A DNA stretch of 64,000 nucleotides from Gemmatimonadota bacterium (GTDB lineage Bacteria; Gemmatimonadota; Gemmatimonadetes; JACCXV01; JAHWKZ01), in contig JBHEOA010000058.1 of NCBI GenBank assembly GCA_046261835.1, positions 763 to 64,762 of the forward strand, written 5' to 3'. Positions 2,716 to 63,300 of the stretch are shown piece by piece. The translations under genes and the position numbers were made by a program. The stretch's first letter is position 1. Each line of letters begins with the position of its first letter. A model generated the notes under the pieces. It searched no databases. It saw only the letters and a program-made list of their open reading frames with translations, and had not been told where the DNA came from.

Positions 2716-4368
2716 CGATCTCCTAAGATACGTCGTATGCCGTCACCGGGGGGTTTGATGGGGGGCAGCCCCATTCGCTCGCGGAGCCGTACGAAGCGTG
2801 GGTCGTCCCGGATCGGATCCAGGCCGGGATCGAAGAAGATGTCCGGGGTCCTGCCCGCGGACCTCTGTTCGATCGACCGTTCGCACCAATCGAAGGCACG
2901 CTCGCGATCACCCGCGTGGAGGTACGTCACCGCCAGGGGGACGGTCGGCCCCTGTTCCTGCCCTGAAACGAGCGTTTGGTAGATCCGACCCGCACCCTCC
3001 CAGTATCCGCGCTAACCCTGCTCGCGCCAGGCACGCGCGAGTTCGGCGCTCAGCCGCTGGCCTGCCTCGGCCCCGGCCAACATCCGCGCCGTGGCGATCG
3101 CGTCCTCGTAGCGCCGGTCGTAGTAGTAGCCCAAGCCGAGCACCGTCGTGATGATCATCGACTGGGGATCGAGTTCGCGGGCGCGCTCGAGCTCGACGAC
3201 CGCCTCCCGCGTTCGACCAACCGCGTAGAGGTACTCGCCGTACCACTGATGGCCGGTAGCATATCCCGGACTGAGCTCGACCGCACGGATGTAGAGCTGG
3301 TCGGCGCGCTCCCATTGCCACCGCTCGTGAGCCACGGCGCCGAGCGTCGCGTACGCCTCTCCGCTTGTGGGATCGAATGTGAGCGCCTGCCGCGCCGCCG
3401 TTTCGGCACGCTGGGTGCCGTCCTCGCGTGGGTACTCCCCGTATTGGGGCAGCAGGAGGTACGTCTCGGCGATCCCGACGTGGGCCAGCGCGAAGCCTGG
3501 ATCTGCGGCGACCGCCTCCTGGAACAGGTCGAGAGCTCGGTCGAGATCCTCGAACGTTCGCCGGTTCCAGAAATACCGCCCGCGCAGGTACAACTGGTAC
3601 GCTTCTTGGTTCGAGGTCGGCGCTCTTTCGATTCGCTGGCGCTCGTCGCTAGTGAGCTCGATTTCGAGCGCACGCGCGATCGAAGTCGCCACGTCGCTCT
3701 GGATTGCGAATAGGCTCTCGACCTCGCGGTCGTAGCTCTCCGACCATAGGTGAGCATCTGTCGAGGCGTCGACGAGCTGGGCGTTGACCCGGACTCGATT
3801 GCCTTCTCGCCGCACGCTGCCCTCGAGGACGGTCGCGACTCCTAGCTCGCGAGCGATATCTCGCAGGCTCTTGTCTGTCTCCTTGTAGTGCATAACCGAT
3901 GTACGGCTTATTACCGTGAGCCCTTCGACCTTGGCGAGGTGACCGATGATCTCCTAGGTCATCCCGTCGCTGAAGAACTCCTGCTCCGGGTCCCCGCTCA
4001 GGTTGGCGAAGGGCAGGACCGCGATCGAGCCGCTGTCCACCGAGGGAACCTGGGCCGGCGTGCTCATCTCGGCAGACGGGGGTCGCGGGTCCTCGCCGTT
4101 TCTCCGGACCAGTGCCAGCGCTGCGCCGGCAACGATGAGGAGCGCCGCGATCATGAGCAGCTCGGGTCCGCTGGCCCGCTGTTGTCCCCGCTCACCGTGG
4201 TACCATGCCAGGACGAGGATGATTGGAAAGCCAATGGCAAGGAGGATGGTCAGTCCGCGTAAGACCGAAGAGGGCCAGCCGAAGTTGGTTCCGACCGTCG
4301 TCGCCACCTGGAGGACGAGCCACGCACCAGCCAGGTAGGCGAGTGCTCCGTTCTTGGGGGAGTGGGAG
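2697..4368 (-). pseudogene. Membrane-anchored TolB_N + TPR protein (cyclase-less paralogue of the gene at 1..1179) interrupted by two in-frame TAG codons; start not resolved
   Basis: ORFs 3954..5009 (C-terminal part), 3012..3893 and 2697..2930 are all in one frame. Read-through of the TAG at 3954-3956 gives ...SIAVLPFANLSGDPEQEFFSDGMT*EIIGHLAKVEGLTVISRTSVMHYKETDKSLRDIARELGV, the canonical TolB_N continuation. Read-through of the TAG at 3012-3014 gives ...AWREQG*RGYWEGAG...YLHAGDRERAF...DPRFVRLRERMGLPP, the family-typical C-terminus. Confidence 0.6.
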
Positions 4369-4369
4369 G

Positions 4370-6484
4370 TCAGTACCTCGCCAGTTCGCGGATCGCGTCG
4401 CGGATGTCCTCGACCTGCGGAAGGATCGCGTCCTCCAGCGACGGGGCATATCCCACCTGGGTGTCGAGCGCGGCGACCCGCCGCACGGGACCGTCCAGCA
4501 CCTCGAACAGCTCGTCGGCGACCCAGGCCGCGACCTCGGCACCGAAGCCCCACGAGATCGGATCCTCGTACACCACGACGACCTTGTTCGTGCGCCGGAC
4601 CGACCGAGCGACCGCCTCCCTGTCCCACGGCGAGAGCGAGCGCAGGTCGAGGATCTCGCACTCGATCCCGTCCGTTTCGGCCACCTCCTTCGCGGCGACT
4701 AGCGACCGCTGCACGGTCGCGCCGTACGTCACAATCGTGAGATCGTCGCCTTCGCGGACTTTCACCGCGCGTCCGAAGGGGATCATGTAGTCGGGCCCCG
4801 GATAGCGGCACTTGTTGTAGGTCTGGCGGTAGAGATGCTTGTGCTCGAGGAACATGACCGGATCGTCGCACCGGATTGCCGTCCGCAAGAGCCCGTTGGC
4901 GTCTTCGGCCGTGGCCGGCATGACCACCCTGAGGCCGGGGTTGGCAGTGAAGAGGATCATCCCCGATTGGGAGTGGTAAACGGCACCGCCCTTGAGGTAG
5001 CCCCCACATGGAACTCGCACGACGACCGGCGAGGCGAAGTCGCCGTTCGACCGCCAGCGCAGCAGCGCCAGCTCGTTTCGAATCTGCATGTAGGCGGGCC
5101 AGATGTAGTCGTAGAACTGAATCTCGACGACCGGCTTGAGGCCGCGTGTCGCCATGCCGACCGCGCGCCCCACGATGTTCGCCTCTGCGAGCGGCGAGTT
5201 GAAGACGCGGATCGAGCCGTACTTGCGCTGAAGGTTGGCGGTGACCTTGAACACGCCGCCCTTCCCCTTGATCTCGCTCAGCGCCGCCTCGCGCGAGGCG
5301 TCGGCCACATCCTGGCCGAAGAGCACGATCCGTGGATTTCGCGCCATCTCATCGGAGAGACATGCGTTGAGGAGGTCGACCATGGTTGTGGGCTCGCCCT
5401 CGTTGCGGGGATCCGTCGCGAAGGCGTCGGATGTGGGATCGACCTCGGACGAGTAAACATGAAGGGTCGCGGTGTCGGGCTCGGGCTGAATCGCAGCGAG
5501 GGCGCGCTCGGTGGCGGTCTCGATCTCGCGATCGACCTCGTTCCGGACAGCCTCGAGCTCTTCCTCGGTCGCGATCCCTTCGGCCACCAGAAAGCGGGGG
5601 AAGGTGGTCAGGGGATCGCGGGATGCTTCCTCTTCCCGCTCCCGCTCTGGCCTGTAGAGACGCTCGTCGTCGGACAGCGAGTGACTGTAAGGACGAATGA
5701 GGTGGGCGTGGATCAGGCCCGGTCCTTTGCGCCCACGCACGTGAGCGACCGCTCCCTCGAGGGCAGCATACGACGCCAACGGATCGCAACCGTCGCACTC
5801 CGTTACGTAGAGTCCCGGGAACGATCGGACGAGCTTGGAGATCGAGCCCCCGGCGGTTTGGACCTCGACCGGGACGCTGATCGCGTACTTGTTGTCCTCG
5901 ATCAGGTAGAGGACCGGCAGCGCCAGGTTGCACGCGGTGTTCAGCGACTCCCAGAACTCGCCCTCCGAGGTGGTGCCGTCCCCCGAGGTCACGAGCACGA
6001 TGTCGTCGTCACGCACATCAGGGTCGTTTGCCAGCTCCGGGATCCGCTCCTTGCGCATGCGGGCCTCGGCGCACCCGACAGCGTTGAGGAACTGCGTTCC
6101 CGTCGGACTCGAGGTCGACACGATGTTGAGCTCGCGGGAGCCCCAATGAGAGGGCATCTGGCGACCGCCGGACTGAGGATCGTCGGCGGCCCCGACGGCC
6201 TGGAGGAGCTGGGCCTCGACCGAGAGCCCGAGCGCGAGGCACAGCGCGCGGTCGCGATAGTAGAGGTAAAACCAGTCGTAGCCCGGCTTCAGCAGCTGGG
6301 CGGCGGCGACCAGAACCGCTTCGTGCCCAGCGCCCGAGATCTGGAAGAAGATCTTGTTCTGGCGCTTGAGCTGAATTTCTCTGTCGTCGACCCGTCTCGC
6401 CGCGTAAATCGTGCGGTACCAGCGGACGAGCGTAGCTGCGTCGAGGCCGGTTGCCGGCGCGGTTTGCGCGTACGGGAGCTGCAT
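4370..6484 (-). CDS. 2-oxoacid (branched-chain/pyruvate-type) dehydrogenase E1 component, fused alpha/beta subunits (TPP-dependent)
   Basis: 704 aa from the internal ATG at 6484. N-terminal half is E1alpha-like ([17 protein letters not shown]...[15 protein letters not shown]). C-terminal half is E1beta/transketolase-like ([20 protein letters not shown]...FLEHKHLYR). Confidence 0.85.
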
Positions 6485-6623
6485 AAGAGCCGATTTTAGC
6501 CAGGGCCGAAGCACCACGCCACGCGTTTCCGCGTCTAGGGAACTCCCAGCTTGTGGGAAGGCACGGCGTCCGCGCGTTATATTCACCGTTCCAGTCCGGC
6601 CGGCCCTCACTTCCACTCGAAGG

Positions 6624-7265
6624 ATGTCGATGCCCGTAGACGGAAAGACGCGTAAGGACGCGTGGGCGATCGTCGAGGAGTTCACCGACAGCGAGAACCT
6701 GCGCCGCCACATGCTCGCGGCCGAGGCCGGGATGCGAGGCTACGCGCGGATCTTCGGCGAAGACGAAGAGAAGTGGGGCTTGGTGGGGTTGCTGCACGAC
6801 TTCGACTACGAGAAGTACCAGGGCCCGAACGGCCATCCGTTCGTCGGCGTCCAGATCCTCGACAAACGAGGGTGGCCCCGCGAGGTGCGACGCGCGATCC
6901 TGTCGCACGCTGACTACACCGGCGTTCCCCGCGAAACCAGAATGGAGAAGACGCTTTACGCCGTCGATGAGCTGAGTGGTTTTCTCGTCGCGTGCGTGAT
7001 CGTGCGGCCGAGCAAGTCGTTCAAGGATCTCACCGTCGCTTCGGTCAAGAAGAAGATGAAGGACAAGAGCTTTTGCGGAGCCGTCGATCGCGAGGACCTC
7101 AAGCGCGCGGCTGTCGATCTAGGAATCGCCTTCGACAAGCACGTCGAGAACGTGATCAAGTTCCTCGCTCCCATCGAGGAAGAGCTCGGCCTCGGTGCGG
7201 CAGCCGGCAAAGACTCCGCGCCTGCCGCGTCAGTCAAGAAGGCCACAGGCAAGAAGACCAAGTAA
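6624..7265 (+). CDS. HD-domain metal-dependent phosphohydrolase (COG2316-like)
   Basis: [10 protein letters not shown]...[13 protein letters not shown] motifs; start chosen at internal [17 protein letters not shown]. Confidence 0.6.
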
Positions 7266-7289
7266 CTACAAAACGAGTCGATTCGGTCG

Positions 7290-7367
7290 CGTTCCTGACA
7301 GTACGAATGCGCCGGCACGGTCTATCCTTAGGTAGGGTCGCGACCCCGGATAGGGGTCGCTAAATCC
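7290..7367. promoter_or_regulatory. Intergenic region with perfect 12-nt palindrome GGGTCGCGACCC (~7335-7346) and a third GGGTCGC half-site, upstream of lipoprotein gene 7368
   Basis: Seen directly in sequence: ggtagGGTCGCGACCccggatagGGGTCGCtaaatcc. Could be an operator or the terminator of the HD gene. Confidence 0.25.
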
Positions 7368-7901
7368 ATGACCACAGGAGGTGGAATCGTGAGGTACCGC
7401 GCGTTTCTGCCGAGTCTTGGTCTCGCCGCGATTCTGGCTCTGGCTTGCCAGGAGGAGCCACAGGATGCCGGGGACATGGCCCAGGCTCCGGGCACGGCGA
7501 CTGGGCTCGAGGCCCGGTCGGTCGAGGTGGATCTCGAAGCCATCAATGAGAGTGGGGTCAGCGGAACGGCCCGGATCGGGAACAAGGACGATCAGATCCT
7601 CATCGATCTCACGCTAGAGGGAGCGAGCCCGGGCGAGAGGTACGTCGCGTACATCCACCGCGGCGAGTGCCAAAACGACCTCGGCCTGATCTCTCCTGTC
7701 GGGGAGCTGACAGTCAGCGAGGGTCACGAGAAGATCACTGGTTCGATCGACAAGGCCTCGCTGGAGCCGACTCAGAATTACTTCGCGCAAGTCACCACTG
7801 GCGACAACGTGCTGATCGCGTGCGGAAACCTTCCGGGAGAGGTCTACGGCGCGGCGCCGGGCACTGAAAGCGGCACGACTGAACCGCTCAGCTCTCCTTG
7901 A
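7368..7901 (+). CDS. Hypothetical lipoprotein (paralogue of 9626..10155)
   Basis: Lipobox LALAC; core ARIGNKDDQILIDLTLEGASPGERYVAYIHRGECQ resembles the core of 9626..10155 (..HTAMIHDGSCA..). Confidence 0.5.
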   Translation: MTTGGGIVRYRAFLPSLGLAAILALACQEEPQDAGDMAQAPGTATGLEARSVEVDLEAINESGVSGTARIGNKDDQILIDLTLEGASPGERYVAYIHRGECQNDLGLISPVGELTVSEGHEKITGSIDKASLEPTQNYFAQVTTGDNVLIACGNLPGEVYGAAPGTESGTTEPLSSP

Positions 7902-9429
7902 GCGAGGGATCGGAGAAGTTCTCGAGCGTCTCCTTGACGACGACCATAAAGTGGTCGGCGGTCGCGCCGTCGACCACGCGGTGATCGTACGAAATCGAGA
8001 AGTAGGCGCAGGTTCGCACGCCGATCGAGTCGTCGGGTCCCACGACCTTGACCCGCTTCTCGATCGCTCCGACTCCGAGGATCGCGACCTGCGGCTGGTT
8101 GATGATCGGGGTCCCTATCAAGGAGCCGAAGACTCCCGGGTTGGTGATCGTGAAGGTTCCGTCCTGGACTTCCTCGGGCAGGAGCTTCTTGGTTCGCGCT
8201 CGTTCAGCGAGGTCGTTGGCGGTGCGCGCGAGCCCGACCAATGACAGCTCGTCGGCGTGCTTGATGACGGGCACGATCAGGCCGAATTCCTTCCCCTGCG
8301 GGAGCGCAACCGCCATCCCGATGTTGATGTCCTTCTTGAGGACGATGTTCTCGCCCCATACCGAGGAATTGAGCACCGGCCACTCCTTGATGCCTGCGAC
8401 CACGGCCCGGATGATGAACGGCAGGTAAGTCAGGTTGACGCCGGAGTCCTCGAGGAAGCGCGGCTTGTTGAGCCGCCTGAGCTCCGCGACTCTCGTCATG
8501 TCGATCTCGAAGAACGTGGTGACGTGCGCCGAGGTGCGCTGTGACTGGATCATGTGCTCTGCGATCTTCCGGCGCATGATCGACATCGGCACCACTTCGA
8601 CCCGGTCCTTGTCGCCGAAAGGACGCGGGGGCTCACCCATCGCCGCCACGGCGGCCGGCTCGATCGCCGCCGGCGTGGGTCGTTCGAGCTCGGACGGCGC
8701 GGGCCGTGGGACCGGGGGGACCTCGGGCGCGGCGGGTCTCCGGGTCGCGCTGGGCTCGACTCCGGATGCGGCCGGCGCGGGAGCCTTCTCGCGCGCTTCG
8801 ACGTAGGCCAGGATGTCGCGCTTCGTCACCCGCCCCGAGAGGCCGGTACCCTGAACCTCGGCGAGATCGACTCCGTGCTCGGCGGCGATGTTGCGGACGA
8901 GCGGCGATGAGCGTTGGCGTCGCAACTCGGCCTTGGACGGTATCCGGCCGGCGCCTTTGCCATCGCCCTCTTGGCTCTCCACGCGCCCGGGCTCGCGACG
9001 CGGGATCGTGGCTTCGTCTTCGGGTGGCGCTGTGGATGCGGGCTGCGGCTCGGCGTGGGCTTCTGGGACGGGCGCACCGGCGGGGGCCGATCGCGCGCTC
9101 GGTGCCCCATCGGGCTGTGGCTCGGGAGCGGGCGGGGCCTCCGCCTCCTCGGTGACGGGTGTGGAGACCGGACCTCCTGCTGGCACCTCACCTTCCTGGT
9201 AAATCTTCGCCACCACCACACCGACCTCCACCGTCTCGCCTTCCGGGACCACGATCTCGCCCAGCGTGCCAGCTGCTGGCGAGGGGATCTCGGCGTCGAC
9301 CTTGTCGGTCGAGATCTCGAAGAGGTTTTCGTCGCGCTGGACCTGGTCGCCCTCCTTCTTGAGCCACTTGACCAGCGTACCCTCGGCGATCGATTCCCCC
9401 ATCTGCGGCATGATGACGTCGATTGGCAT
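7888..9429 (-). CDS. Dihydrolipoamide acyltransferase E2 component of a 2-oxoacid dehydrogenase complex
   Basis: Lipoyl domain MPIDVIMPQMGESIAEGTLVKW...EISTDKVDAEIPSP. Ala/Pro linkers, peripheral subunit-binding domain, and C-terminal catalytic domain ending SYDHRVVDGATADHFM. Confidence 0.85.
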   Translation of the reverse strand: MPIDVIMPQMGESIAEGTLVKWLKKEGDQVQRDENLFEISTDKVDAEIPSPAAGTLGEIVVPEGETVEVGVVVAKIYQEGEVPAGGPVSTPVTEEAEAPPAPEPQPDGAPSARSAPAGAPVPEAHAEPQPASTAPPEDEATIPRREPGRVESQEGDGKGAGRIPSKAELRRQRSSPLVRNIAAEHGVDLAEVQGTGLSGRVTKRDILAYVEAREKAPAPAASGVEPSATRRPAAPEVPPVPRPAPSELERPTPAAIEPAAVAAMGEPPRPFGDKDRVEVVPMSIMRRKIAEHMIQSQRTSAHVTTFFEIDMTRVAELRRLNKPRFLEDSGVNLTYLPFIIRAVVAGIKEWPVLNSSVWGENIVLKKDINIGMAVALPQGKEFGLIVPVIKHADELSLVGLARTANDLAERARTKKLLPEEVQDGTFTITNPGVFGSLIGTPIINQPQVAILGVGAIEKRVKVVGPDDSIGVRTCAYFSISYDHRVVDGATADHFMVVVKETLENFSDPSLKES

Positions 9430-9625
9430 GAGCGCCCTCCTTGGCGGGCCGGTCGGGGGAAAGAGTGGACGGAGGCGTGGAACGATAGCCAAGGCAGCCA
9501 GACCGCACCACCGGAACAGGGAAGCTCTGTCAACCTTCTGACGGTCGTCCGGGGCCTGACATCACAGACTATGAGCGGGGCCGGTCGCGTCGTGCACAGA
9601 CACGACGAGGAGGGAGAAACAGCGA

Positions 9626-10155
9626 TGTCCACGTTCGAACGATGGGCCGCGGTCGGGTTTCTGACCGGAGCGCTCGTCCTGATGGGCTGCACCTCGGGTC
9701 AACGCCGAGAGACCGAGGAGACCGCGGACGAGGTCGCCGAAGAGACCGAGGAGGTCGCCGGAGAAGTCGCGGAGGAGACGCAGAAAGCGGCCGACCGGGC
9801 GGAGGATTACGTAGATATGGAGACCACGGCCACGATCGAGGGCGTCGGAGGATCGGGCCTGGCGGGCAACGCCGACCTCTCGTTCGACAGCGGCCAGGCT
9901 CGAGTCGAGGTCGAGCTCGCTGGCGTCGCAGATGCCGCCGCTCATACCGCGATGATTCACGACGGCTCGTGCGCGGCGTACGGCGGACCGGTCGTGACGC
10001 TCGACGGCTTCATCTCTCAGGGGGGTGGCCTCGAAAGCGTGACGACGTTCGACGAGAGCCGACTGGTGGATGGGTCGCGCTACGCCGTCGTCGTCCACGG
10101 GCAGGGCGGTGCGGTTGTGGGATGCGGCGACTTCGGGGAGATCGACCGCGGCTGA
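9626..10155 (+). CDS. Hypothetical lipoprotein with acidic linker (paralogue of 7368..7901)
   Basis: MSTFERWAAVGFLTGALVLMGCTSG lipoprotein signal and E-rich linker. Conserved core VELAGVADAAAHTAMIHDGSCAAYGGPV is shared with 7368..7901. Confidence 0.5.
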
Positions 10156-10162
10156 TTCGGAT

Positions 10163-11509
10163 TCAAGACCCGCGTTCTTTCGCCTCGACGCACGGGTCGA
10201 CGAATTCGTCGATTGGCACGGATCGCTCTCCGAGCCCCAGGTACGGCCAAACGTCCTCGGCACGGACCCAGCCCGGTGGCGGATCGACGTTGGAGGCGAG
10301 AAAGCCGACCGAGGAGAGGTACCGCGCCGCCCCGTGCGTCCCCTCCATCGAGACGAAGGGCTCGAAGAGTGAGAGACCGTAGTGCCACCCCTCGTCGAGG
10401 CTCACCAGGACGCTCGCCGGGTGACGGGTGTGATTCCGCACCCCCTGCATCACGCGTCGTTCGAGCTCGGGATAAAGAGAGTCGGGACGGTCGGCGAGGT
10501 CGGTCGGTCCACGCGCGTCGACCGCAGCGAAGCCACCAGGGATGCGCCAGGCCGCGAAGTCCGCGCCTTCCTCAGTGGCGACCGCGCGCGCGACCTCGGC
10601 CTCGGCGCCGCACGCCGTGTAGAGCTGAATCGAGCCGATCAGGCCGTAAGCCGGCGCGACCACGTCGCGCGGCGTCTCGAGGCGGTCGCTCAGTCGGAAC
10701 CCGCCGCTCGCCAGCGCTGAATCGAGGTCGAACCTGCGCGTGGCTCCACGGCTCAACCCGTGGTCGCTCAAGAGCACCACCCTGCGATTGCCTCCACCCC
10801 CGGCGAGCCACCGTTCGAGCATGGCGTCGATCCTTCTCAGATGCGGCCCCAACGCGTCCCAGCCTTCTTCGTGACCGAGACCATCGGTAGCCCCCATGTA
10901 GAGGACGAGCTCGGGCTCGTCGCTTCGCTCGAGGATCTCCGCGATCCGGTCCAGCTCCGCGAGCGCTACGCGTTCGGGCTCCAGGTAGACGAACCCGCCC
11001 CAGAAGCGCGGCGGCTCCCAGTCGAAGACCGCGTGAAACGGGGCCAGATCCTTGTACTCGCCGCTCACCCGCTCTCCCAGCCCCCCGCCCATCTGATTCG
11101 TCCGGCGGTCGAAGAACCTGTCCTCGTAGGCGGCCGAGGACGGGGTGCGGAAGATCGTGGTGAAGCCGACGTCGGTGAGGGAGGGAAACGGCGCGAGCAT
11201 GCGCGCGGCCGGGAAGAAGGCGCGGAAGCGGCCCTCGCGCTGGAGCGCGGCGAAGAGGTCGTAGGGGATCGCGTCGATCGCCAGGATCACGGTCCGGGGC
11301 GGGTCAGATTCCGGTATCGGGGCGCGGATCTCGCGGAACGCTTCGCCGTCGAGGACGCGAAAGAGGTCGGTCCTGCCGTCGCCGTCGAGGTCGGCGTGAC
11401 GAACGGAGGGCTCGTCTCGTGAAGACGCGCAGGCATGGGTCGCGAGCCCGCCGCAGACGAGCATCAAGGTGAGCGTGCGGCGATGCCGGCCCAGGTTGGC
11501 CGCGCCCAT
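10163..11509 (-). CDS. Alkaline-phosphatase-superfamily type I phosphodiesterase/nucleotide pyrophosphatase-like lipoprotein
   Basis: Start at internal MGAANLGRHRRTLTLMLVCGGLATHAC (lipobox). TVILAIDAIPYDLF...YMGATDGLGHEEG...VVLLSDHGL motifs of PF01663-like enzymes. Start codon abuts the upstream gene's stop at 11509. Confidence 0.65.
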   Translation of the reverse strand: MGAANLGRHRRTLTLMLVCGGLATHACASSRDEPSVRHADLDGDGRTDLFRVLDGEAFREIRAPIPESDPPRTVILAIDAIPYDLFAALQREGRFRAFFPAARMLAPFPSLTDVGFTTIFRTPSSAAYEDRFFDRRTNQMGGGLGERVSGEYKDLAPFHAVFDWEPPRFWGGFVYLEPERVALAELDRIAEILERSDEPELVLYMGATDGLGHEEGWDALGPHLRRIDAMLERWLAGGGGNRRVVLLSDHGLSRGATRRFDLDSALASGGFRLSDRLETPRDVVAPAYGLIGSIQLYTACGAEAEVARAVATEEGADFAAWRIPGGFAAVDARGPTDLADRPDSLYPELERRVMQGVRNHTRHPASVLVSLDEGWHYGLSLFEPFVSMEGTHGAARYLSSVGFLASNVDPPPGWVRAEDVWPYLGLGERSVPIDEFVDPCVEAKERGS

Positions 11510-12687
11510 CACTCCGGCGCGCGGGTGCGATACCAGCGGTCGAGTAGCACGCGCTCTTCGACCGTCATCCCGGTCACGTTCCCCATCGGCATCGTCTGGG
11601 TCTCCACGGCACGGAAGTGAATCCGATCGGCCCATTGGAGAACCTCCTCTCGCGTATCGAGGACGACACCCGCCGGCGCGACCGGAAAAGCTGCATCGAT
11701 CGGCGCCGCCGAATGGCACGGGACACAGCGACGCTCGACCACCGCGCGCGCTTCGTCGAAGGAGACCTCTCCCGCCCCTCCCCTCCTGGGCGCGGGCCGC
11801 GTGGCGATCGCCAGCGCGACCAGCACCGTCACGGCAGCCGGAACGAGCCACGCTTCGCGCCTGCCCTGGTGGCGCAGGTTATCGAAGTGGCGCAGCATGA
11901 CCCCCACCAGCGCCACCCCGGCGAGCACGAGCCAGTTCCATGGGTGGCCATAGGTGGCGGGGTAATGGTTGCTGATCATCACGAAGAGGACGGGTAGCGT
12001 GAAGTAGTTGTTGTGGAGCGAGCGCATCGCGGCGTGCCGGCCACGCTTCGCGTCCGGCTCCTCGCCCCGTCCCATGGCCTCGACCATCGCGCGTTGAGAA
12101 GGGATGATCACGAAGAAGACGTTGGCAGCCATGATCGTGCCGAGCATCGCACCTACGTGGATGTACGCCGCGCGTCCGCTCAGGAGCTGGCTCAGCCCGA
12201 AGGCCGCCGCCCCGCCGAGCATGAACATCGCGGCGCCGAAGGCGACCGGACGCCTCGCCAGCGGGGTCCGACACAGCCCATCGTAGACGAGCCAGCCACC
12301 GATCAGGCTCGCCAATCCGACTCCCACCGCGGCGAGCTGAGAGATCTGCGCCACCGCGGGGTCGCGCAGATAGGCGCCCGAGCCCAAGTAATAGACGAGA
12401 ACGAGAAGCGAGGCCCCCGTGAGCCACGTCAGGTACGCCTCCCACTTGAACCAATGGAGCGTCTCCGGCAGCCGCTCGGGAGCGACGGCGAACCGCTCGA
12501 CCCGGTAGAACCCTCCCCCGTGAACCGACCAGACCTCCCCGTCGATGCCGGGTCGCGGTGAAGCCGGCGGTCGGAACGAATGATTGAGCCAGACGAAGTA
12601 GAAGGAGGTCCCGATCCACGCCGCGCCGGCCACGAGGTGGAACCAGCGAGCGAGGAGCTCGAGCCACTGGAGGATATGGGTCTCCAC
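11509..12687 (-). CDS. Polytopic membrane protein with C-terminal cytochrome c domain (CVPCHS); urate hydroxylase PuuD-like
   Basis: Multiple TM helices and a single CxxCH haem-binding motif near the C-terminus. The PuuD assignment is from memory of the family and is uncertain. Confidence 0.45.
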   Translation of the reverse strand: METHILQWLELLARWFHLVAGAAWIGTSFYFVWLNHSFRPPASPRPGIDGEVWSVHGGGFYRVERFAVAPERLPETLHWFKWEAYLTWLTGASLLVLVYYLGSGAYLRDPAVAQISQLAAVGVGLASLIGGWLVYDGLCRTPLARRPVAFGAAMFMLGGAAAFGLSQLLSGRAAYIHVGAMLGTIMAANVFFVIIPSQRAMVEAMGRGEEPDAKRGRHAAMRSLHNNYFTLPVLFVMISNHYPATYGHPWNWLVLAGVALVGVMLRHFDNLRHQGRREAWLVPAAVTVLVALAIATRPAPRRGGAGEVSFDEARAVVERRCVPCHSAAPIDAAFPVAPAGVVLDTREEVLQWADRIHFRAVETQTMPMGNVTGMTVEERVLLDRWYRTRAPE

Positions 12688-12702
12688 GCCGTGCCGCGCG
12701 CC

Positions 12703-13707
12703 TCAGTAGGCGAGGAGCTTCTTGGCGACCTCTATGACGTCGTCTTTGCCCGGCACGTAGAAGTCCTCGAGCGGCGGGCTGTAGGGTACCGGCGTGTCGG
12801 GCGCGGTGACGCGCACGATCGGCGCTTCGAGGTATTCGAACGCCTTCTCGGCGATCGTGGCCGCGATCTCGGCCCCGAACCCACCGGTTCGCGGCGCTTC
12901 GTGGAGGACGATCGCATAGCCGGTCTTTGCGACCGAGGTCAAGATCGTCTGTTCGTCGAGCGGCAGGAGTGTCCGCAGATCCACGACCTCCGCCTCGACG
13001 CCGAGATTCGCCAGCTCGTCGGCCGCGTCCCCCGCCGTGTGGACCATCGCCCCGTACGTCACGATTGTGAGATCGCTTCCCTCGCGATGGACCCGCGCCT
13101 TGCCGAGGGGCACGACGAACTCTTCGGCCGGAAGATCTTCCTTGATCCGCCGATAGAGGAACTTGTGCTCTTGAAAGATGACGGGGTCGTCGTCTCGAAC
13201 CGCTGCCTTGATGAGACCCTTGGCGTCGTACGGAGTAGCGGGCGCGACGAACTTGAGTCCGGCGGTGTGGACGAAGTACGACTCCGCGGAAAGCGAGTGA
13301 AAGGGACCGCCGCGGACGCCCGCCCCGGCCGGGCCGCGCACCACCATGGGGACACCTACTCCCCACCGGTAGCGATTCTTTGCCGCGACGTTGGTCAGCA
13401 TGTCGAAACCGCACGAGATGAAGTCGATGAACTGCATCTCGGCTACAGGCCTAAGGCCCATCATCGCCGCACCCACCGATGCGCCGACGATCGCTCCCTC
13501 GGAGATCGGCGTGTCGATCACCCGCTGTTCGCCGAAGCGGTCGACGAAGCCGTCGGTCACCTTGAAGGCGCCGCCGTAGACCCCGACGTCCTCGCCCAGG
13601 AGGAAAACGCGGTCGTCCCGCTCCATCTCCTCCCACAGCCCCTGGCGGATCGCCTCGAGGTAGGTGGTGGTGCCGCCGCGCGCGGGCTGTTCCGCCTTGA
13701 CGGTCAC
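12703..13707 (-). CDS. 2-oxoacid dehydrogenase E1 component beta subunit
   Basis: TTYLEAIRQGLWEEMERDDRVFLLGEDVG...FQEHKFLYR...[13 protein letters not shown] is a typical E1beta. GTG start at 13707..13705 overlaps the stop of the upstream lipoprotein gene. Confidence 0.8.
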   Translation of the reverse strand: MTVKAEQPARGGTTTYLEAIRQGLWEEMERDDRVFLLGEDVGVYGGAFKVTDGFVDRFGEQRVIDTPISEGAIVGASVGAAMMGLRPVAEMQFIDFISCGFDMLTNVAAKNRYRWGVGVPMVVRGPAGAGVRGGPFHSLSAESYFVHTAGLKFVAPATPYDAKGLIKAAVRDDDPVIFQEHKFLYRRIKEDLPAEEFVVPLGKARVHREGSDLTIVTYGAMVHTAGDAADELANLGVEAEVVDLRTLLPLDEQTILTSVAKTGYAIVLHEAPRTGGFGAEIAATIAEKAFEYLEAPIVRVTAPDTPVPYSPPLEDFYVPGKDDVIEVAKKLLAY

Positions 13708-14054
13708 TGGTTCTTGGAGACGATGATGGTGGCGGTGTTGTCGATCCCGATCGAATCGAGCCAGATCGTGTACGGAGGCCACTGCACCCCGCCGACCCGG
13801 CCAGAGGCGCCGAGATCGACCAAACGCTCGGCGCCTACGTCCCTGACCCGGATACGCGCCTTGGCGACATCGATCGACCGCAACGTGATTCGGAGTCGTC
13901 CGCCATCGAAGAAAACGGGCTCCCCGATTCGCAGCTTGGCCGATTCGCTCCAGCTCTCGGCTCCGCGCGGCGAGCGGTCCTCGCCATTGCCGTCGACCGC
14001 GATGAAGCAGGCAGAGAGCAGCAGGACCGCGCCGAGGAGCGCGAGCCTCCTCAT
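13704..14054 (-). CDS. Small lipoprotein (116 aa), tandem paralogue B
   Basis: MRRLALLGAVLLLSAC lipobox; same length as the adjacent gene; 4-nt overlaps on both sides. Confidence 0.5.
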   Translation of the reverse strand: MRRLALLGAVLLLSACFIAVDGNGEDRSPRGAESWSESAKLRIGEPVFFDGGRLRITLRSIDVAKARIRVRDVGAERLVDLGASGRVGGVQWPPYTIWLDSIGIDNTATIIVSKNQ

Positions 14055-14401
14055 CGCAGACGAGAGATCTGAACGGTCGCGCTGGGTTCCAGGGACGTCG
14101 ACAGAAGTTCGAACCGATACGGTGCGACCGTGCGGGTGGAAAGCGGGCCGCTCGACTGGAGCTCGATCGTCTGCGTAATCCCCCCGACGCGGACCAGGAA
14201 GCTCGCCTGATCGACCCCGATCTGGACCGGCTGGATCTCGATCTCACGACTGTCGGCGATGAATCGCTCGTCGAGTCTGAGGTCCACTTGCTCGGTCCAC
14301 GCGGCATCCGCAGCCGGCTCCATGCGATTTCCCGATACGGTGCTGGTCGTCTGGCAGGCTGTCAGAACCAGTGGGATCAGAAACAGTGCGAAGCGTCTCA
14401 T
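14051..14401 (-). CDS. Small lipoprotein (116 aa), tandem paralogue A
   Basis: MRRFALFLIPLVLTAC lipobox; the internal start at 14401 overlaps the E1alpha stop (14398). Confidence 0.5.
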   Translation of the reverse strand: MRRFALFLIPLVLTACQTTSTVSGNRMEPAADAAWTEQVDLRLDERFIADSREIEIQPVQIGVDQASFLVRVGGITQTIELQSSGPLSTRTVAPYRFELLSTSLEPSATVQISRLR

Positions 14402-59004: not shown

Positions 59005-59367
59005 TCAAGAGGGCTGGAGCCGCGCGGTGAGCCGCTCCGGGATCACATGGCATTCGTCGGCCCTAACGGTGACCCCGGTGACGCGCCACGGGCGGTATCC
59101 CGGTGCCGTGACGGTCACGTCGTAGGTCCCCGGCCGCTCGAAGACCCCGAAGAGCTGGCCAGGCTCGAAGCTCTCCAGTGTGTCGGCGAAGGCCTCCTCG
59201 TTCGCGATTCCGCTGCCAGCCACTTCCCTACCACTCAGTGAATCGACGACCGTGACGTTGATCCCGGCGCGAGCTTCGAGGGTGCAGGCGACATCGGTCC
59301 GCGTTCCGTTGCAGGCTAGGGCAACGATGACGAGGATGACCAGCGTTAGCGGCGTGAGTCGGATCAT
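59005..59367 (-). CDS. Hypothetical lipoprotein (carboxypeptidase-regulatory-like fold?)
   Basis: MIRLTPLTLVILVIVALAC lipobox. Confidence 0.4.
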   Translation of the reverse strand: MIRLTPLTLVILVIVALACNGTRTDVACTLEARAGINVTVVDSLSGREVAGSGIANEEAFADTLESFEPGQLFGVFERPGTYDVTVTAPGYRPWRVTGVTVRADECHVIPERLTARLQPS

Positions 59368-59427
59368 CGAAATGAATATACTTACCTCCCAACGTGGTGT
59401 TCCGATCGGGAACCGTGAAGGAGGGGG

Positions 59428-60336
59428 ATGATGCGGGTATTCATCACCGGCGGCTCGGGTTACATCGGCTCCAAGGTGGTCCAGGCATTCGTCGCGGCGG
59501 GGCACGAGGTGACCGCTCTGACCCATTCACCGGAGAACATCCCGGAGCTGGAATCGCTCGGTGCGACGCCGGTTCGGGGAGACGTGCAGGACCCGCTCGG
59601 ATGGTCGGAGATGGCGGCCGGCCACGACGAGCTCGTCCACCTCGCCCTCGACGATGGTTCTCCGGTCGATGCCGACCTGGGGGTGATCGATGGGCTCCTG
59701 GAGGTCGGCCGCACGACGGTCGGCAGGAACTGCCACATGATCTATACCTCGGGGTGCTGGGCCCTGGGCGAAACTGGCGACGAGCCGGCCGACGAAACGG
59801 TGTCGCTCGATCATCCCGCCCCGATTGTAGCATGGCGGCCGGCGCACGAGGCTCAGGTACTCGGCTCCTCCGACGAGACGTTCTTTACCGCGGTCATCCG
59901 GCCCGGGATCGTCTACGGCGGTCGCGCCGGTTTGCTGGCGCCGCTCTTCGAGTCGGCTGCCGAGAACGGCGCCGCCGAGTATATCGAGCGCGGCGACAAT
60001 CGCTGGTCGCTCGTCCATCGCGACGATCTGGCCCGACTCTACCTCGAGGTGGCCGAGAAGCGCGCCAGCGGCGTTTTCCACGGGGTCGACGGCATGGCGC
60101 TCCCGGCTCGCGACGTCGCCCAGGCGGCGAGCCGCGCGGCAGGAGCGGGTGGCAAGACGAAGTCGATCACCCTGACCGAAGCCCGGCAGCGACTGGGCCC
60201 GGCCGCTGACGCTCTCGTGCTGGACCAGGTGCTCGTGGGCAAGCGTTCGCGGGAGCTGGGATGGGAGCCCCGCCGAACTTCGTTCATCGACGAGGCCGAC
60301 GGGGCGTTCCGGGAGTGGAAGCTGGGCCGCTTCTAG
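59428..60336 (+). CDS. NAD-dependent epimerase/dehydratase-family (extended SDR) protein
   Basis: MRVFITGGSGYIGSKVV Rossmann N-terminus. Confidence 0.7.
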   Translation: MMRVFITGGSGYIGSKVVQAFVAAGHEVTALTHSPENIPELESLGATPVRGDVQDPLGWSEMAAGHDELVHLALDDGSPVDADLGVIDGLLEVGRTTVGRNCHMIYTSGCWALGETGDEPADETVSLDHPAPIVAWRPAHEAQVLGSSDETFFTAVIRPGIVYGGRAGLLAPLFESAAENGAAEYIERGDNRWSLVHRDDLARLYLEVAEKRASGVFHGVDGMALPARDVAQAASRAAGAGGKTKSITLTEARQRLGPAADALVLDQVLVGKRSRELGWEPRRTSFIDEADGAFREWKLGRF

Positions 60337-60340
60337 AGCG

Positions 60341-60791
60341 TCATTCCCCGGTTCGCAAGGGCTCGAGCGCCAGAACGCGATAGCCGCTCTCTTCGTCGAT
60401 CGCGCTTTCCGAGTAGTCGACGGAAACCGCGATCGGGTAACCGAGTTCCGGGTGGAATTCGACGTGGATCGAGGCAGCGTCTTGCTCGACCGCCTCCTCG
60501 ATGAACTCGAAGAGGCCCTCGACATCAGGGAAGAAGCGCTCGAAGTCGCTTGGCACCGGCTCGCCGCTCTCGACATAAGAGCGCGTGATCTCACCGAAGC
60601 GCTTCTGGACGACTACGTCCCCGCGCCTCCTGACCGCAGAAGCAGTCGTGCTGGAGAGTCAGAGCGTAGTCGCCGTATCCCTGCTCGCTCCACCGTTCGC
60701 GGGCCGCGGCCAGGTCCTCCCTACCCCTCTTCTCATCGCAATCGAACCCAAGCGTGAGCAAGGTGGCCACCGCGATCGCGGGGGTCCTCAT
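60341..60791 (-). CDS. Small lipoprotein with apparent G-homopolymer indel (~60630)
   Basis: MRTPAIAVATLLTLGFDC lipobox. ORFs 60591..61019 and 60341..60556 join if one G is removed from gcgcGGGGacg, giving ...CFCGQEARDVVVVQKRFGEI.... Confidence 0.35.
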
Positions 60792-61156
60792 CGCTCGATC
60801 GGGTAACCGGCCCGCACCCAACCGCCGAAACCGCCGTCCATCGAGGTAACGTTCGTGTAGCCCATCCGCTGAAGGCTCTCGGCCGCGAGCGCCGAGCGCG
60901 AACCGCCGCCGCAATAGAGCACGATGTCGGATTCGGCGTCGGGGATCGCCCGTTCGATCTGGGTTTCCAGGATTCCGCGGCTGAGCCAGCCGGCGCTCGG
61001 AACGTGACCGCGCCCCCACTCGCTCTCTTCGCGCACGTCGATCAGATAGAAGCGCTCGCCGCGGTCGAGGCGCGCCTTGATCTCATCGACCGACGCCTCC
61101 TTGATCCGCGCCTTCGCTTCCTGGACGAGGCTCGCGAAACGGTTCGGCTGCTGCAT
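60788..61156 (-). CDS. Rhodanese-domain sulfurtransferase
   Basis: FYLIDVREESEW..GHVPSA...IVLYCGGGSRSALA active-site Cys loop. Confidence 0.7.
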   Translation of the reverse strand: MQQPNRFASLVQEAKARIKEASVDEIKARLDRGERFYLIDVREESEWGRGHVPSAGWLSRGILETQIERAIPDAESDIVLYCGGGSRSALAAESLQRMGYTNVTSMDGGFGGWVRAGYPIER

Positions 61157-61177
61157 CTCGAAGACTACCCGTCCCGG

Positions 61178-61963
61178 TTAATCCTGATCATCCGGCGGTA
61201 TGCTCTCCCCCCCTTTGAACGGCTGGACCCTTACCTTCCTCCGGTGATCGGGCCAGGGCGTCCCATCTGGCAGCTCTCCTTTACTGTACCATCCTTGAAA
61301 TTTGATCGACCGGACATCCGTCTCACTCATCGGGCTTCTTATCTGCCCTTCCTTCTTGGCTTTTGGAATGATCTTGCTGAATCCTCGTCTGCCGAGTGCA
61401 TATCGATATTGCTTCACTAGATCAGTATCATTACTAAGATTCCTAAACTCTGGTACGAACTCTTCAACGTCTCCTATTCTTACCGGGAAGAAGAAACAAT
61501 ATGGTTCTCCAATAGAGAACGTTACCCGATGGTTCGGGCGCGTGAATTTCCAGTTCATGGTGAACGAAAAAGGCATCCAATCCGTCTCGATGGCGGCCGA
61601 TAGAGCTTGGATCCCGTCCTTGAAATGATTCGGCGGCCCCGTAACCCATAGGCCGTACCCCGGGGGCGTTCGGATTACGAAATGTTGCCCAAAGGTCAGA
61701 ATCCCATGACCAAAATGACCTTTGACATCCAGCGGAGCATCACCCTTCTTTTGAACCACCACATCTGCCGGCGCGAGGCCTCCGTTCCATTCGGCCTCGA
61801 AACTCTGCAAGCAGCGAATTTCCCACCCATGAGCGTTTGCGATCGAGAGAGGCAGGCATCGATACGCGAAGGCTTCCGTCGTCTCATCCATCCAATCTCG
61901 GCGATGGTTGGCGGGACGAATATCGTACCGATAATTATCCTCTACGTAACACTCGAGTTTCAT
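61178..61963 (-). CDS. Hypothetical protein (unknown family) on low-GC island
   Basis: 261-aa ORF, no recognised motif; H-rich segment HFGHGILTFGQHF. Confidence 0.5.
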   Translation of the reverse strand: MKLECYVEDNYRYDIRPANHRRDWMDETTEAFAYRCLPLSIANAHGWEIRCLQSFEAEWNGGLAPADVVVQKKGDAPLDVKGHFGHGILTFGQHFVIRTPPGYGLWVTGPPNHFKDGIQALSAAIETDWMPFSFTMNWKFTRPNHRVTFSIGEPYCFFFPVRIGDVEEFVPEFRNLSNDTDLVKQYRYALGRRGFSKIIPKAKKEGQIRSPMSETDVRSIKFQGWYSKGELPDGTPWPDHRRKVRVQPFKGGESIPPDDQD

Positions 61964-62277
61964 TTGATTTATCCTTCGAACTGTGGGTGAAGAATCTAGT
62001 CTTAGGATTAAATCGCGATCGAAAATTTGGACAGCCGGGGTTTCGTTTGAACCTAGTTTGGCAAGAAGGCCGAGGTCAAGGAGCCGGACTTCGGCCTACC
62101 GGGCTGCGCTGTGGGGCACGCGTCGCGCGGCATGGCACTTGCTTAGCTTTCCCGATTTGCTGAAGCGATTTATGTTCGTCACCTGTTTCCTACGTTTGTT
62201 CCTACATTGGCGCGAATGGGTCGGACTCCTCTCCACTCTCCAAAGCATACGAATGAGGCGATGGGGGCGTCACTTTC

Positions 62278-63300
62278 ATGAAGCGCGACCAACTCCTTGA
62301 CTACGTCAAGACGCACTCCTTCCCCCACGCTCTCTTCTATCATACCAACATGCCGGGGGAAATCGGCCGTCTGCTCACTTCTTTGAGGCCCATCAGCTAC
62401 TTCCCGCCCTATCCATGGGGTCAATGGTTATATCACCAGGTATACGCGGCCCGATGTTCATCCCTGGAAGGCGACGTCATAGAGTTTGGAGTCGGAAGAG
62501 GAGGGATGTCCATCTTCTTGGGCCACCTTGCGAAGACCTCCGCCAAGAAGGTATTCGCGTTAGATAGCTTCCAGGGCTTGCCCCCCAGCCTCACACCTAT
62601 GGATAATCCTTATTTCAAAGCTGGGGATTACGGCCGTGCACAGAACTATGATCAAGAGTTATATGATCTTGTCTTACGGAGCATCCGCCAACATGAATTG
62701 CAAGATACGGTCATACCCATCCGAGGATTCTTCGCCGAATCAGTCAAAGAGATAGCAGAAGATCAACGCTTCTGCTTCGCGCACATCGACGGGGATCTCT
62801 ACGAATCGGTACATGTGGCTTTGAAGAATATCTATGACCGCGTCGTAGAGGGGGGCGTCATCGTCATCGATGACTTCTTTCACCCGGCTCAAGGGCCTGC
62901 CAGAGCAGCCTCAGACTATTTCAACGAACGGGGCATCTATCCACTTTATCACGTTTCCTTCCCTTACTCTGTCTTTATCCTCAAGGGCCAAGGTGCCGAT
63001 TCCGTAGATTACCCTCGCAGCGTCGACGGTAATTCATACTCCTTCGAATGGTTGCGAACTGATGAACACTTTCTGTCGGCCTTGGACGCTTGCATAGAAG
63101 AAATGAGCCGTGACGCCGCGCTCCTGGCGTTATTCAAGGAACCCATCAAGAACGCGGAGATGTTGCGAGGTGTCTTGACGACATCGTTGCCCCGTAGCTC
63201 GGATATCTATGAGTATTGGAGGTCGTTGTACGAATTCTGGGACACCATCGCCAGCATGACCCATAAGCGAGCTCAGGGGCGGGATCCGCTCTACGCCTAG
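62278..63300 (+). CDS. TylF/MycF (macrocin O-methyltransferase)-family class I SAM-dependent methyltransferase
   Basis: IEFGVGRGGMSIFL...ALDSFQGLPP...HIDGDLYESVHVALKNIYDRVVEGGVIVIDDF resembles Methyltransf_24 / TylF. Confidence 0.7.
   Translation: MKRDQLLDYVKTHSFPHALFYHTNMPGEIGRLLTSLRPISYFPPYPWGQWLYHQVYAARCSSLEGDVIEFGVGRGGMSIFLGHLAKTSAKKVFALDSFQGLPPSLTPMDNPYFKAGDYGRAQNYDQELYDLVLRSIRQHELQDTVIPIRGFFAESVKEIAEDQRFCFAHIDGDLYESVHVALKNIYDRVVEGGVIVIDDFFHPAQGPARAASDYFNERGIYPLYHVSFPYSVFILKGQGADSVDYPRSVDGNSYSFEWLRTDEHFLSALDACIEEMSRDAALLALFKEPIKNAEMLRGVLTTSLPRSSDIYEYWRSLYEFWDTIASMTHKRAQGRDPLYA

Follow-up and report, generated by a model that had tools for sequence, protein, structure and literature searches.

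Positions 61170-63300 of the 64-kb stretch of DNA analysed here (the window) hold a real accessory insert of foreign composition, consisting of two intact, divergent ORFs that are both under purifying selection. One encodes a protein of the DUF6065 family and the other a TylF-type O-methyltransferase. The best explanation we can offer, and we favour it tentatively, is that this islet is a foreign accessory insert built in two steps, and that the two products most likely act on one hydroxyl-bearing substrate. As a genomic feature the islet is an ordinary small foreign insert; its value is that of an entry point to two families without experimental data, DUF6065 and the FKBP-fused TylF-like methyltransferases. 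The features considered below are as follows.

59428..60336, forward strand: NAD-dependent epimerase/dehydratase-family gene, part of the conserved backbone, which bounds the variable slot on its other side
60341..60730, reverse strand: DUF6174 gene in two reading frames, part of the ancestral slot content (profile matches)
60788..61156, reverse strand: rhodanese gene of host-like GC, ancestral immediate downstream neighbour of the HD gene (Pfam)
61170..63300, no strand: low-GC islet
61178..61963, reverse strand: DUF6065 (PF19541) gene, 261 aa, with a predicted dUTPase/dCTP-deaminase-like beta fold (ORF and Pfam)
61964..62277, no strand: divergent intergenic spacer, 314 bp, GC 0.53, presumed promoter region for both genes
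62278..63300, forward strand: gene for a TylF-type metal-dependent SAM O-methyltransferase, 340 aa
63304..63987, reverse strand: 3' part of a YhaM-like (OB-fold and HD) gene, cut by the end of the window (HD domain match)

The islet has a GC content of 0.525 against 0.667 elsewhere in the window (2-kb windows, sd 0.016; z = -9.1), and its tetranucleotide distance to the remaining sequence corresponds to z = +19.6, so that by both measures it lies outside the variation of the rest of the 64 kb. No 500-bp window across the 64 kb falls below 0.58 GC apart from those of the islet. The first-pass annotation had put the compositional shift at about 18 percentage points; its abruptness is borne out, but not its size, the mean fall over the islet being ~14 points and values of ~19 points being reached in single 300-bp windows only. 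The two ORFs are confirmed on opposite strands around the spacer, as are the rhodanese and YhaM-like flanks, and the islet's boundaries fall within a few bases of the ends of the flanking genes. The AT-rich codon usage noted earlier across both genes is equally evident: GC3 is 0.56 for the DUF6065 gene and 0.63 for the methyltransferase gene compared with 0.73-0.84 (about 0.8) for neighbouring genes, and codon-usage correlations with host genes are 0.44 and 0.69 for the two islet genes, while every host gene tested reaches at least 0.83. Between themselves the two genes correlate at r 0.52, no closer than either to the host; as to a common donor the comparison is uninformative.

Comparison with relatives suggests how the islet came about. 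The islet sits in the tail of what was ancestrally one co-directional operon, pyrR-pyrB-pyrC-YhaM-like HD-rhodanese-DUF6174. In the relative L091, DUF6174, rhodanese and HD genes are contiguous, the latter two 11 bp apart, with neither DUF6065 nor the methyltransferase present. The sister lineage (L089 and L002) has DUF6065 by itself at this site and carries another copy next to pyrR, and in L093 a member of the DUF6065 clade lies upstream of pyrR; the window copy, P0002, P0004 and the two L089 copies form an exclusive clade. From 49.2 to 64 kb the window is collinear with L089 save for the rhodanese/DUF6174 segment and the segment comprising spacer and methyltransferase gene. The sister lineage thus has a diverged DUF6065 copy at the same locus, the gene being absent from the site in two more distant relatives, and the methyltransferase is missing there from L089, the P0244 relative and L091 alike. 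We consider that the islet was probably assembled in two steps, DUF6065 first: the DUF6065 gene would have arrived as a member of the clade held in common with the sister lineage, where its copies sit just after HD or just before pyrR, and the methyltransferase gene, together with most of the 314-bp spacer, would then have entered between HD and DUF6065, in antisense orientation and in this species alone. The methyltransferase has a single close relative (98%), from the same species (L001, 96% nucleotide identity), and the best non-conspecific match is at 51%; the window DUF6065 is 50-58% identical to copies of other bacteria. Phage origin of the latter is not supported, viral copies being only 30-46% identical and cultured phages having none.

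The pair had been taken for a horizontally acquired tailoring mini-cassette. The foreign-looking insert stands, but not a conserved pair or signatures of mobility: DUF6065 adjoins a TylF-like methyltransferase in none of 79 genome loci and none of 65 viral loci, and within the 64-kb window we found no meaningful direct repeats flanking the islet, no tRNA genes or Rfam elements at it, and no integrase or transposase among its neighbours. A role in defence was dropped, as PADLOC returned no hits. With small integrase-less islets at variable inter-operon slots the present one shares the abrupt composition shift, lineage-restricted content and tight gene-to-gene boundaries. It differs from them in that its DUF6065 gene is not recent, the sister lineage keeping a diverged copy at the same site, and in that all DUF6065 clade copies remain unameliorated.

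The 261-aa protein, earlier thought to have no recognisable family, matches Pfam DUF6065 (PF19541) over nearly its full profile (positions 1-235 of 236, E 3e-82) and retains every invariant column of the family; the universally conserved residues are R22, W24, C36, N43, N112, E126, N137, R193, Y226 and H240. The family comprises ~2,200 clusters at 50% identity from at least five bacterial phyla and uncultivated phages (none was found in cultured phages), and it is absent from the searchable literature, searches for DUF6065 and PF19541 giving nothing relevant. Structure prediction yielded a dUTPase/dCTP-deaminase-like beta-barrel fold at moderate confidence (pLDDT 75). To the trimeric dUTPase/dCTP deaminase superfamily the predicted likeness is one of fold, identity being ~12% and profile matches to Dut or Dcd insignificant: a Pfam search of the protein gave no dUTPase/DCD match, the family profile gave no match to PDB sequences, and hhalign against verified E. 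coli Dut and Dcd gave a probability of 0.1%, with the five dUTPase motifs undetectable. A resemblance by eye of 'PLSIANAHGW' to dUTPase motif II 'PRSGLGHKHG' was set aside, since it is the top hhalign segment but at that same probability. DUF6065 is moreover longer than these enzymes by 100 residues, with a conserved segment, RxWM...AYRCLPL..AN..GW, at its N-terminus and a helix and tail at its C-terminus; phages that have it also carry canonical dUTPase, and it is found fused to hydroxylases and transferases, not to nucleotide enzymes.

These partners are consistent across the family. Among 71 long DUF6065 representatives, fusions are to Cupin_8/JmjC (12), PF13640 (10), sulfotransferases (~8), glycosyltransferases (~5) and PqqD (3), and in no case to a methyltransferase. 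The JmjC partner is fused to or immediately downstream of DUF6065 in 18 of 79 genomes, a PF13640 oxygenase lies immediately downstream in seven viral loci, and in rhizobia such as Sinorhizobium autotransporters with poly-Pro runs of 16-51 residues are found 67-171 bp upstream; in a sphingomonad the order is autotransporter-DUF6065-JmjC. The uncharacterised DUF6065-JmjC/Cupin_8 and DUF6065-PF13640 fusions and operons of Alphaproteobacteria and phages hold the same domain as the window protein, at 40-55% identity and with the same invariant residues. In contrast to them, the window protein is stand-alone, the 64 kb contain no 2OG or JmjC oxygenase, and it neighbours a methyltransferase, a kind of partner unseen with DUF6065 elsewhere.

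The assignment of that neighbour to the TylF family holds, with 89.3 bits to PF05711 (TylF/MycF/NovP; cut-off 23) over profile positions 89-249 of 264 and with the glycine-rich SAM-binding motif, the Asp triad and the DGD catalytic/metal motif all kept: the segments VIEFGVGRGG, HIDGDLYES and VIVIDDFF can be aligned with the motifs of SpnH, and G65, G71, G75, G76, D171, D173, D198 and D199 do not vary across the subfamily. The fold is that of solved PF05711 members. The protein nevertheless belongs to a distinct subfamily, which is uncharacterised. Of its 340 residues ~180-195 align with the sugar O-methyltransferases TylF, MycF, NovP, SpnH and CalS11; unlike in those enzymes, the N-terminal lid that shapes the sugar-substrate pocket (PF05711 positions 1-88) is unmatched and replaced by a subfamily-specific helical N-terminus with the motif FPFDLF...PPYPWGQWLY, a conserved helical C-terminal module of ~100 aa is added, and many members bear an N-terminal FKBP domain. 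The subfamily can be defined by FPFDLF, PYPWGQW and DGNxYSLDWL. In its genomic neighbourhoods are 2OG oxygenases, an ATP-grasp ligase or regulators, and in no case genes for deoxysugars or polyketides; PKS, glycosyltransferase and sugar genes are absent from the homologue contexts, and no deoxysugar, macrolide or aminocoumarin cluster surrounds the islet, where window neighbours and the largest ORFs are housekeeping. The proposed tailoring of sugars or polyketides is not supported. PF13640 oxygenases adjoin the subfamily in four of five contexts, and the oxygenase beside the closest full-length relatives (P0126/P0131) is BLAST-homologous to the DUF6065-fused oxygenase domains. A literature search for TylF with 2OG gave nothing relevant.

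Let us suppose, then, that the two products work together. DUF6065 may be a frequent partner, through substrate binding or an extra catalytic step, of systems that hydroxylate a substrate and then decorate the hydroxyl; it looks like such a partner because it is fused or adjacent to JmjC/Cupin_8 proteins, P4H-type 2OG hydroxylases, sulfotransferases and glycosyltransferases. The methyltransferase, which retains both the Asp triad of Mg2+-dependent O-methyltransferases and the SAM site, would contribute an O-methyl decoration. A protein or peptide is the likelier substrate, as hinted by the FKBP fusions of the methyltransferase, the prolyl-hydroxylase-type and JmjC partners, the PqqD fusions and the poly-proline autotransporters; the main alternative would be a pyrimidine nucleotide or nucleic acid. 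PF13640 2OG oxygenases are associated with both families, but the link is indirect and PF13640 a very large family. A broader and rather doubtful extension would make DUF6065 the signature of a widespread, undescribed 'hydroxylate-and-decorate' system in which JmjC or P4H-type 2OG hydroxylases are combined with interchangeable sulfo-, glycosyl- and, here, methyltransferases, with proline-rich secreted proteins or peptides as likely targets, or pyrimidine nucleotides or DNA in phages; were this true, the window would hold its first methyltransferase-type variant. Whatever the case, DUF6065 now has a predicted dUTPase-like fold, a defined set of universally conserved residues and a consistent circle of partners (JmjC and P4H-type hydroxylases, sulfo- and glycosyltransferases, PqqD, poly-proline autotransporters), and the methyltransferase subfamily is found beside oxygenases of the same kind. 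Were the two truly linked, they would mark out a bacterial and phage pathway, open to testing, in which O-modification depends on hydroxylation, and would show that dUTPase-fold proteins have been recruited to tasks outside nucleotide metabolism.

The chief alternative is that the slot between the epimerase and HD genes gathers accessory genes, and that DUF6065 and the methyltransferase are unrelated, separate arrivals doing independent work. We regard this as quite possible, if somewhat improbable. The adjacency could be coincidence because the slot is a demonstrably variable hotspot, its content being unlike in every relative examined (TonB_C/DUF6174/rhodanese; DUF2283/72-aa/DUF6174; DUF6065 only; and the window's own set). 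In the sister lineage DUF6065 copies function without the methyltransferase, and DUF6065 is described as alone in all five clade members; none of the five methyltransferase contexts includes DUF6065, and none of the hypothetical proteins in methyltransferase-containing clusters is a relative of it. The absence of the pair from the ~150 other loci and the codon usage of the two genes, which is not especially alike, point the same way. Against coincidence, both families are rare and each is separately tied to 2OG hydroxylases of a related type, the habitual DUF6065 partners are O-directed transferases, the divergent genes have one low-GC spacer in common, and two such genes would a priori not be expected to come together by chance, even at a hotspot.

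A joint action on nucleotides or nucleic acids is in our view unlikely. Here DUF6065 would be a divergent enzyme of the dUTPase/dCTP-deaminase type with a pyrimidine (deoxy)nucleotide as its substrate, and the methyltransferase would add its methyl group to a hydroxyl of the nucleotide so produced or of RNA or DNA. Such a module would account for the position of DUF6065 by the pyr operon and in phage replication modules, but pyr adjacency is limited to one phylum and may reflect an inherited position. The dUTPase motifs lack sequence support, phages bearing DUF6065 also have the canonical enzyme, and the fusion partners (JmjC, P4H-type, sulfotransferase, glycosyltransferase, PqqD), together with the poly-Pro autotransporters, favour proteins or glycans.

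That the genes are native, their low GC arising from amino-acid content or gene-specific selection, is very improbable: the five clade copies do hold GC 0.48-0.54 despite saturated synonymous divergence (pS 0.69-0.79), an outcome not expected from simple amelioration of a single old acquisition, and residues with AT-rich codons abound in the DUF6065 protein (GC2 0.43), but GC3 is low as well, the methyltransferase is missing from every relative, the rhodanese-HD junction is uninterrupted in more distant relatives, and low GC is not intrinsic to DUF6065, because across 79 genomes the family is at host GC (median gene-minus-flank difference -0.004).

A few observations concern the surroundings of the islet. 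The 314-bp spacer has no Rfam match and no similarity to regions upstream of the DUF6065 copies in L089 and L092; its sigma-70-like matches are weak, none of them convincing. The HD gene is the last conserved gene of the pyrR-pyrB-pyrC-HD block, and its full-length orthologues, located after pyrC, carry tRNA_anti-codon (OB-fold) and HD domains, the YhaM architecture; a metagenome scan with the HD protein gave relatives at 44-49% only and was uninformative on locus history. Epimerase orthologues at 79%, 72% and 55% hold the same position in relatives, and the rhodanese is 65% identical to that of L091. The DUF6174 gene is split, ORF 60341-60556 matching profile positions 60-121 and ORF 60591-61019 (aa 103-134) matching positions 2-33, by a frameshift, pseudogene formation or an assembly error; both fragments match the DUF6174 protein of L091.

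The islet at 61.17-63.30 kb, an accessory insert lacking an integrase and occupying a variable slot, is a feature of a familiar type. Ordinary in itself, it nevertheless gives access to two uncharacterised families for which clear hypotheses can be put to the test. Its two divergent open reading frames are as described in the first-pass annotation:

61178-61963, minus strand: DUF6065 gene, 261 aa
314 bp between the two genes: divergent spacer, low GC (0.53)
62278-63300, plus strand: TylF-type methyltransferase gene, 340 aa

The DUF6065 gene is co-directional with the operon tail and ends 21 bp short of the rhodanese start, and the methyltransferase gene is antisense, 3 bp separating its stop from that of the YhaM-like HD gene. 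We found the islet edges unmarked by repeats, tRNAs, RNA families or mobility genes. Comparison of the window with the conspecific L001 shows purifying selection on both genes: dN/dS is 0.05 in the methyltransferase, which has 31 synonymous and 6 non-synonymous differences, and 0.18 in the DUF6065 fragment.

Relatives recovered via the flanking epimerase share a backbone in which an lpd-like gene, MsrB and the epimerase are followed by a variable slot, the HD gene, pyrC, pyrB, pyrR, a second slot and a 2-hydroxyacid dehydrogenase. In L091, a more distant relative whose epimerase is 55% identical, TonB_C, DUF6174 and rhodanese occupy the slot, all of host GC and co-directional with the pyr genes, with 11 bp between rhodanese and the HD gene; in a relative with 72% epimerase identity, the slot contains DUF2283, a small ORF and DUF6174. 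The sister lineage L089/L002 (epimerase 79%; flanks 75-81% identical in nucleotides and collinear with window 49.2-64 kb) carries a DUF6065 gene alone in the slot, 63 bp past the HD stop, and a second copy between pyrR and the dehydrogenase, both of GC ~0.53:

L089 15780-16574 and 10928-11710: DUF6065 paralogues, low GC, 65% identical, bracketing the pyrR-pyrB-pyrC-HD operon

Since the window order is DUF6174 (split over two frames), rhodanese, DUF6065, methyltransferase and HD, the low-GC pair interrupts an ancestral rhodanese-HD junction inside the operon tail. In a distance tree, the window DUF6065, that of a 73% relative (L092), both L089 copies and the L093 copy, which lies upstream of pyrR, form an exclusive clade, which makes DUF6065 a resident of this lineage. 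By comparison, the methyltransferase has a conspecific match only, in L001 (98% aa, 96% nt), no other match exceeding 51%.

Several other features of these loci deserve mention. In L004, too, DUF6065 adjoins the pyrR-pyrB-pyrC-HD operon. The window DUF6174 gene (60341-60730, minus strand), between epimerase and rhodanese and intact in relatives, has its C-terminal part in ORF 60341-60556 and its N-terminal part inside ORF 60591-61019; it is frameshifted, a pseudogene or misassembled in the MAG. A 173-aa ORF at 59005-59526 (minus strand) weakly resembles CarboxypepD_reg/PEGA, scoring under the Pfam threshold. It takes up the whole gap between MsrB and the epimerase, running into the called ends of both genes, and may be spurious or lineage-specific, as the gap is only ~120 bp in relatives. 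In L089, 17726-20921 (~1 kb from the second DUF6065 copy) encodes PqqD, an asparagine-synthase-like protein, a GerE/sigma-70-r4 regulator and a second Asn-synthase, a set resembling a lasso-peptide-type cluster and also present in the relative carrying P0244; PqqD also occurs among DUF6065 fusion partners.

The 261-aa protein, previously described as lacking any recognisable family, is a full-length DUF6065 (PF19541, E 3e-82), as the annotation of the source Gemmatimonadota MAG also calls it. The family is highly conserved (~50% identity across phyla) and large (~2,200 clusters at 50% identity; 544 species genomes), with no mention found in the literature searched. It is predicted to be built on a dUTPase-like scaffold but should not be classed as a dUTPase. 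Half of the best representatives are multidomain, and the partners in 71 long DUF6065 proteins include Cupin_8/JmjC hydroxylases (12), PF13640 P4H-type 2OG oxygenases (10), Stf0 or other sulfotransferases (~8), glycosyltransferases (~5), PqqD (3), SapC (3) and a nucleotidyltransferase. A JmjC partner is fused or directly downstream in 18 of 79 genomes, and a PF13640 oxygenase lies directly downstream at seven viral loci.

Model score, motifs and fold place the methyltransferase in the TylF family, but it lacks the family's lid and membership in a biosynthetic cluster, the window holding housekeeping genes only; because of these absences, the proposed role in sugar or polyketide tailoring is unsupported. 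PF13640 oxygenases stand beside its subfamily in four of five contexts (two rhizobial clusters, also holding an ATP-grasp ligase, a desaturase and GFA, and two Pyrinomonadaceae loci). BLAST shows homology to DUF6065-fused oxygenase domains for the oxygenase adjoining the closest full-length relatives, but none for the rhizobial oxygenases. Those closest relatives, in the Pyrinomonadaceae loci L082 and L096 (8001-15096), are followed by an FHA-GAF sigma-54 activator, the PF13640 oxygenase and a Ser/Thr kinase with Tricorn/PD40 repeats, an order kept in two samples. A conserved transposase-flanked cluster in L095 (R. leguminosarum plasmid, 7407-14207) and L098/L099 (Bradyrhizobium, 3121-9983) resembles a small, uncharacterised biosynthetic pathway: alongside a TylF-like methyltransferase it encodes 2OG-Fe(II) oxygenases, a fatty-acid desaturase, a PGM1-like ATP-grasp ligase, a GFA-family protein and a hypothetical protein of 299 aa. 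At least 14 homologues (P0123-P0166; L083 8001-9488) carry an N-terminal FKBP peptidyl-prolyl isomerase domain, and dinoflagellates (Symbiodiniaceae) also have homologues, annotated as macrocin O-methyltransferase.

Whether the two genes act as a unit is a matter on which direct evidence speaks against and indirect evidence for. A methyltransferase homologue was found at none of the 79 genomic and 65 viral DUF6065 loci, DUF6065 at none of the five methyltransferase-centred contexts, HMM search included, and the sister lineage has DUF6065 without the methyltransferase; chance adjacency at an insertion hotspot is possible, if somewhat less likely than a functional pair. On the other hand, the partner and neighbour patterns point to a recurring network linking DUF6065 with a 2OG hydroxylase and an O-directed transferase, to which the window would add a methyl variant, and we tentatively consider a functional DUF6065-methyltransferase pair quite possible.

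Hints of a protein or peptide substrate come from the FKBP and PqqD fusions, the partners of JmjC and prolyl-hydroxylase type, and the upstream autotransporters. Autotransporter genes precede DUF6065 by 67-171 bp on the same strand, some with poly-proline runs of 16-51 residues, and their products are candidate substrates of the system. Such loci are L094 (S. medicae pMl3, 4442-7723; gap 9 bp), L030, L035, L056, L072 and L081, the order in L030 and L035 being autotransporter-DUF6065-JmjC; the runs measure 16 to 51 prolines in L056, 43 in L072, and 20 and 11 in the S. medicae locus, and L078 carries, immediately downstream of DUF6065 but on the other strand, a homologous ORF containing 73 consecutive prolines. 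Action on nucleotides or nucleic acids would agree with the dUTPase-like fold, the flanking pyr operon and the setting in phages, and we consider it unlikely. The phage setting comes from 65 uncultivated viral contigs (IMG/VR; median GC 0.37), DUF6065 being absent from 50,697 cultured-phage records; there it usually sits within a replication/nucleotide module beside a canonical dUTPase, with PolB within 5 kb at 30 of the 65 loci, canonical dUTPase at 19, DUF1599 at 19, a DNA-methylase-like gene at 17, SpoU at 13, DnaB at 12 and UvsX at 9.

As to the origin of the islet, low GC is not family-wide (median gene-minus-flank difference -0.004 in 79 genomes), yet all clade copies stay at 0.48-0.54 despite saturated synonymous sites and dN of 0.24-0.40 (backbone genes, 0.11-0.15), which does not comfortably fit either a single old acquisition with amelioration or repeated independent capture. 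In the window itself the anomaly is genuine and abrupt: GC drops from ~0.66 to ~0.50, the interval averages 0.525 against 0.667 (sd 0.016) in 2-kb windows elsewhere (z = -9.1), and its tetranucleotide distance from the rest lies 19.6 sd above background; the shift stands, but its mean size is ~14 points rather than the 18 initially claimed. A native origin of the islet genes is hardly credible. Only this interval in the whole 64 kb has 500-bp windows below 0.58 GC, third-position GC is 0.56 (DUF6065) and 0.63 (methyltransferase) against 0.73-0.84 in neighbours, and codon usage correlates with the host gene set at 0.44 and 0.69, respectively, and at 0.83 or more for each of ten host genes.
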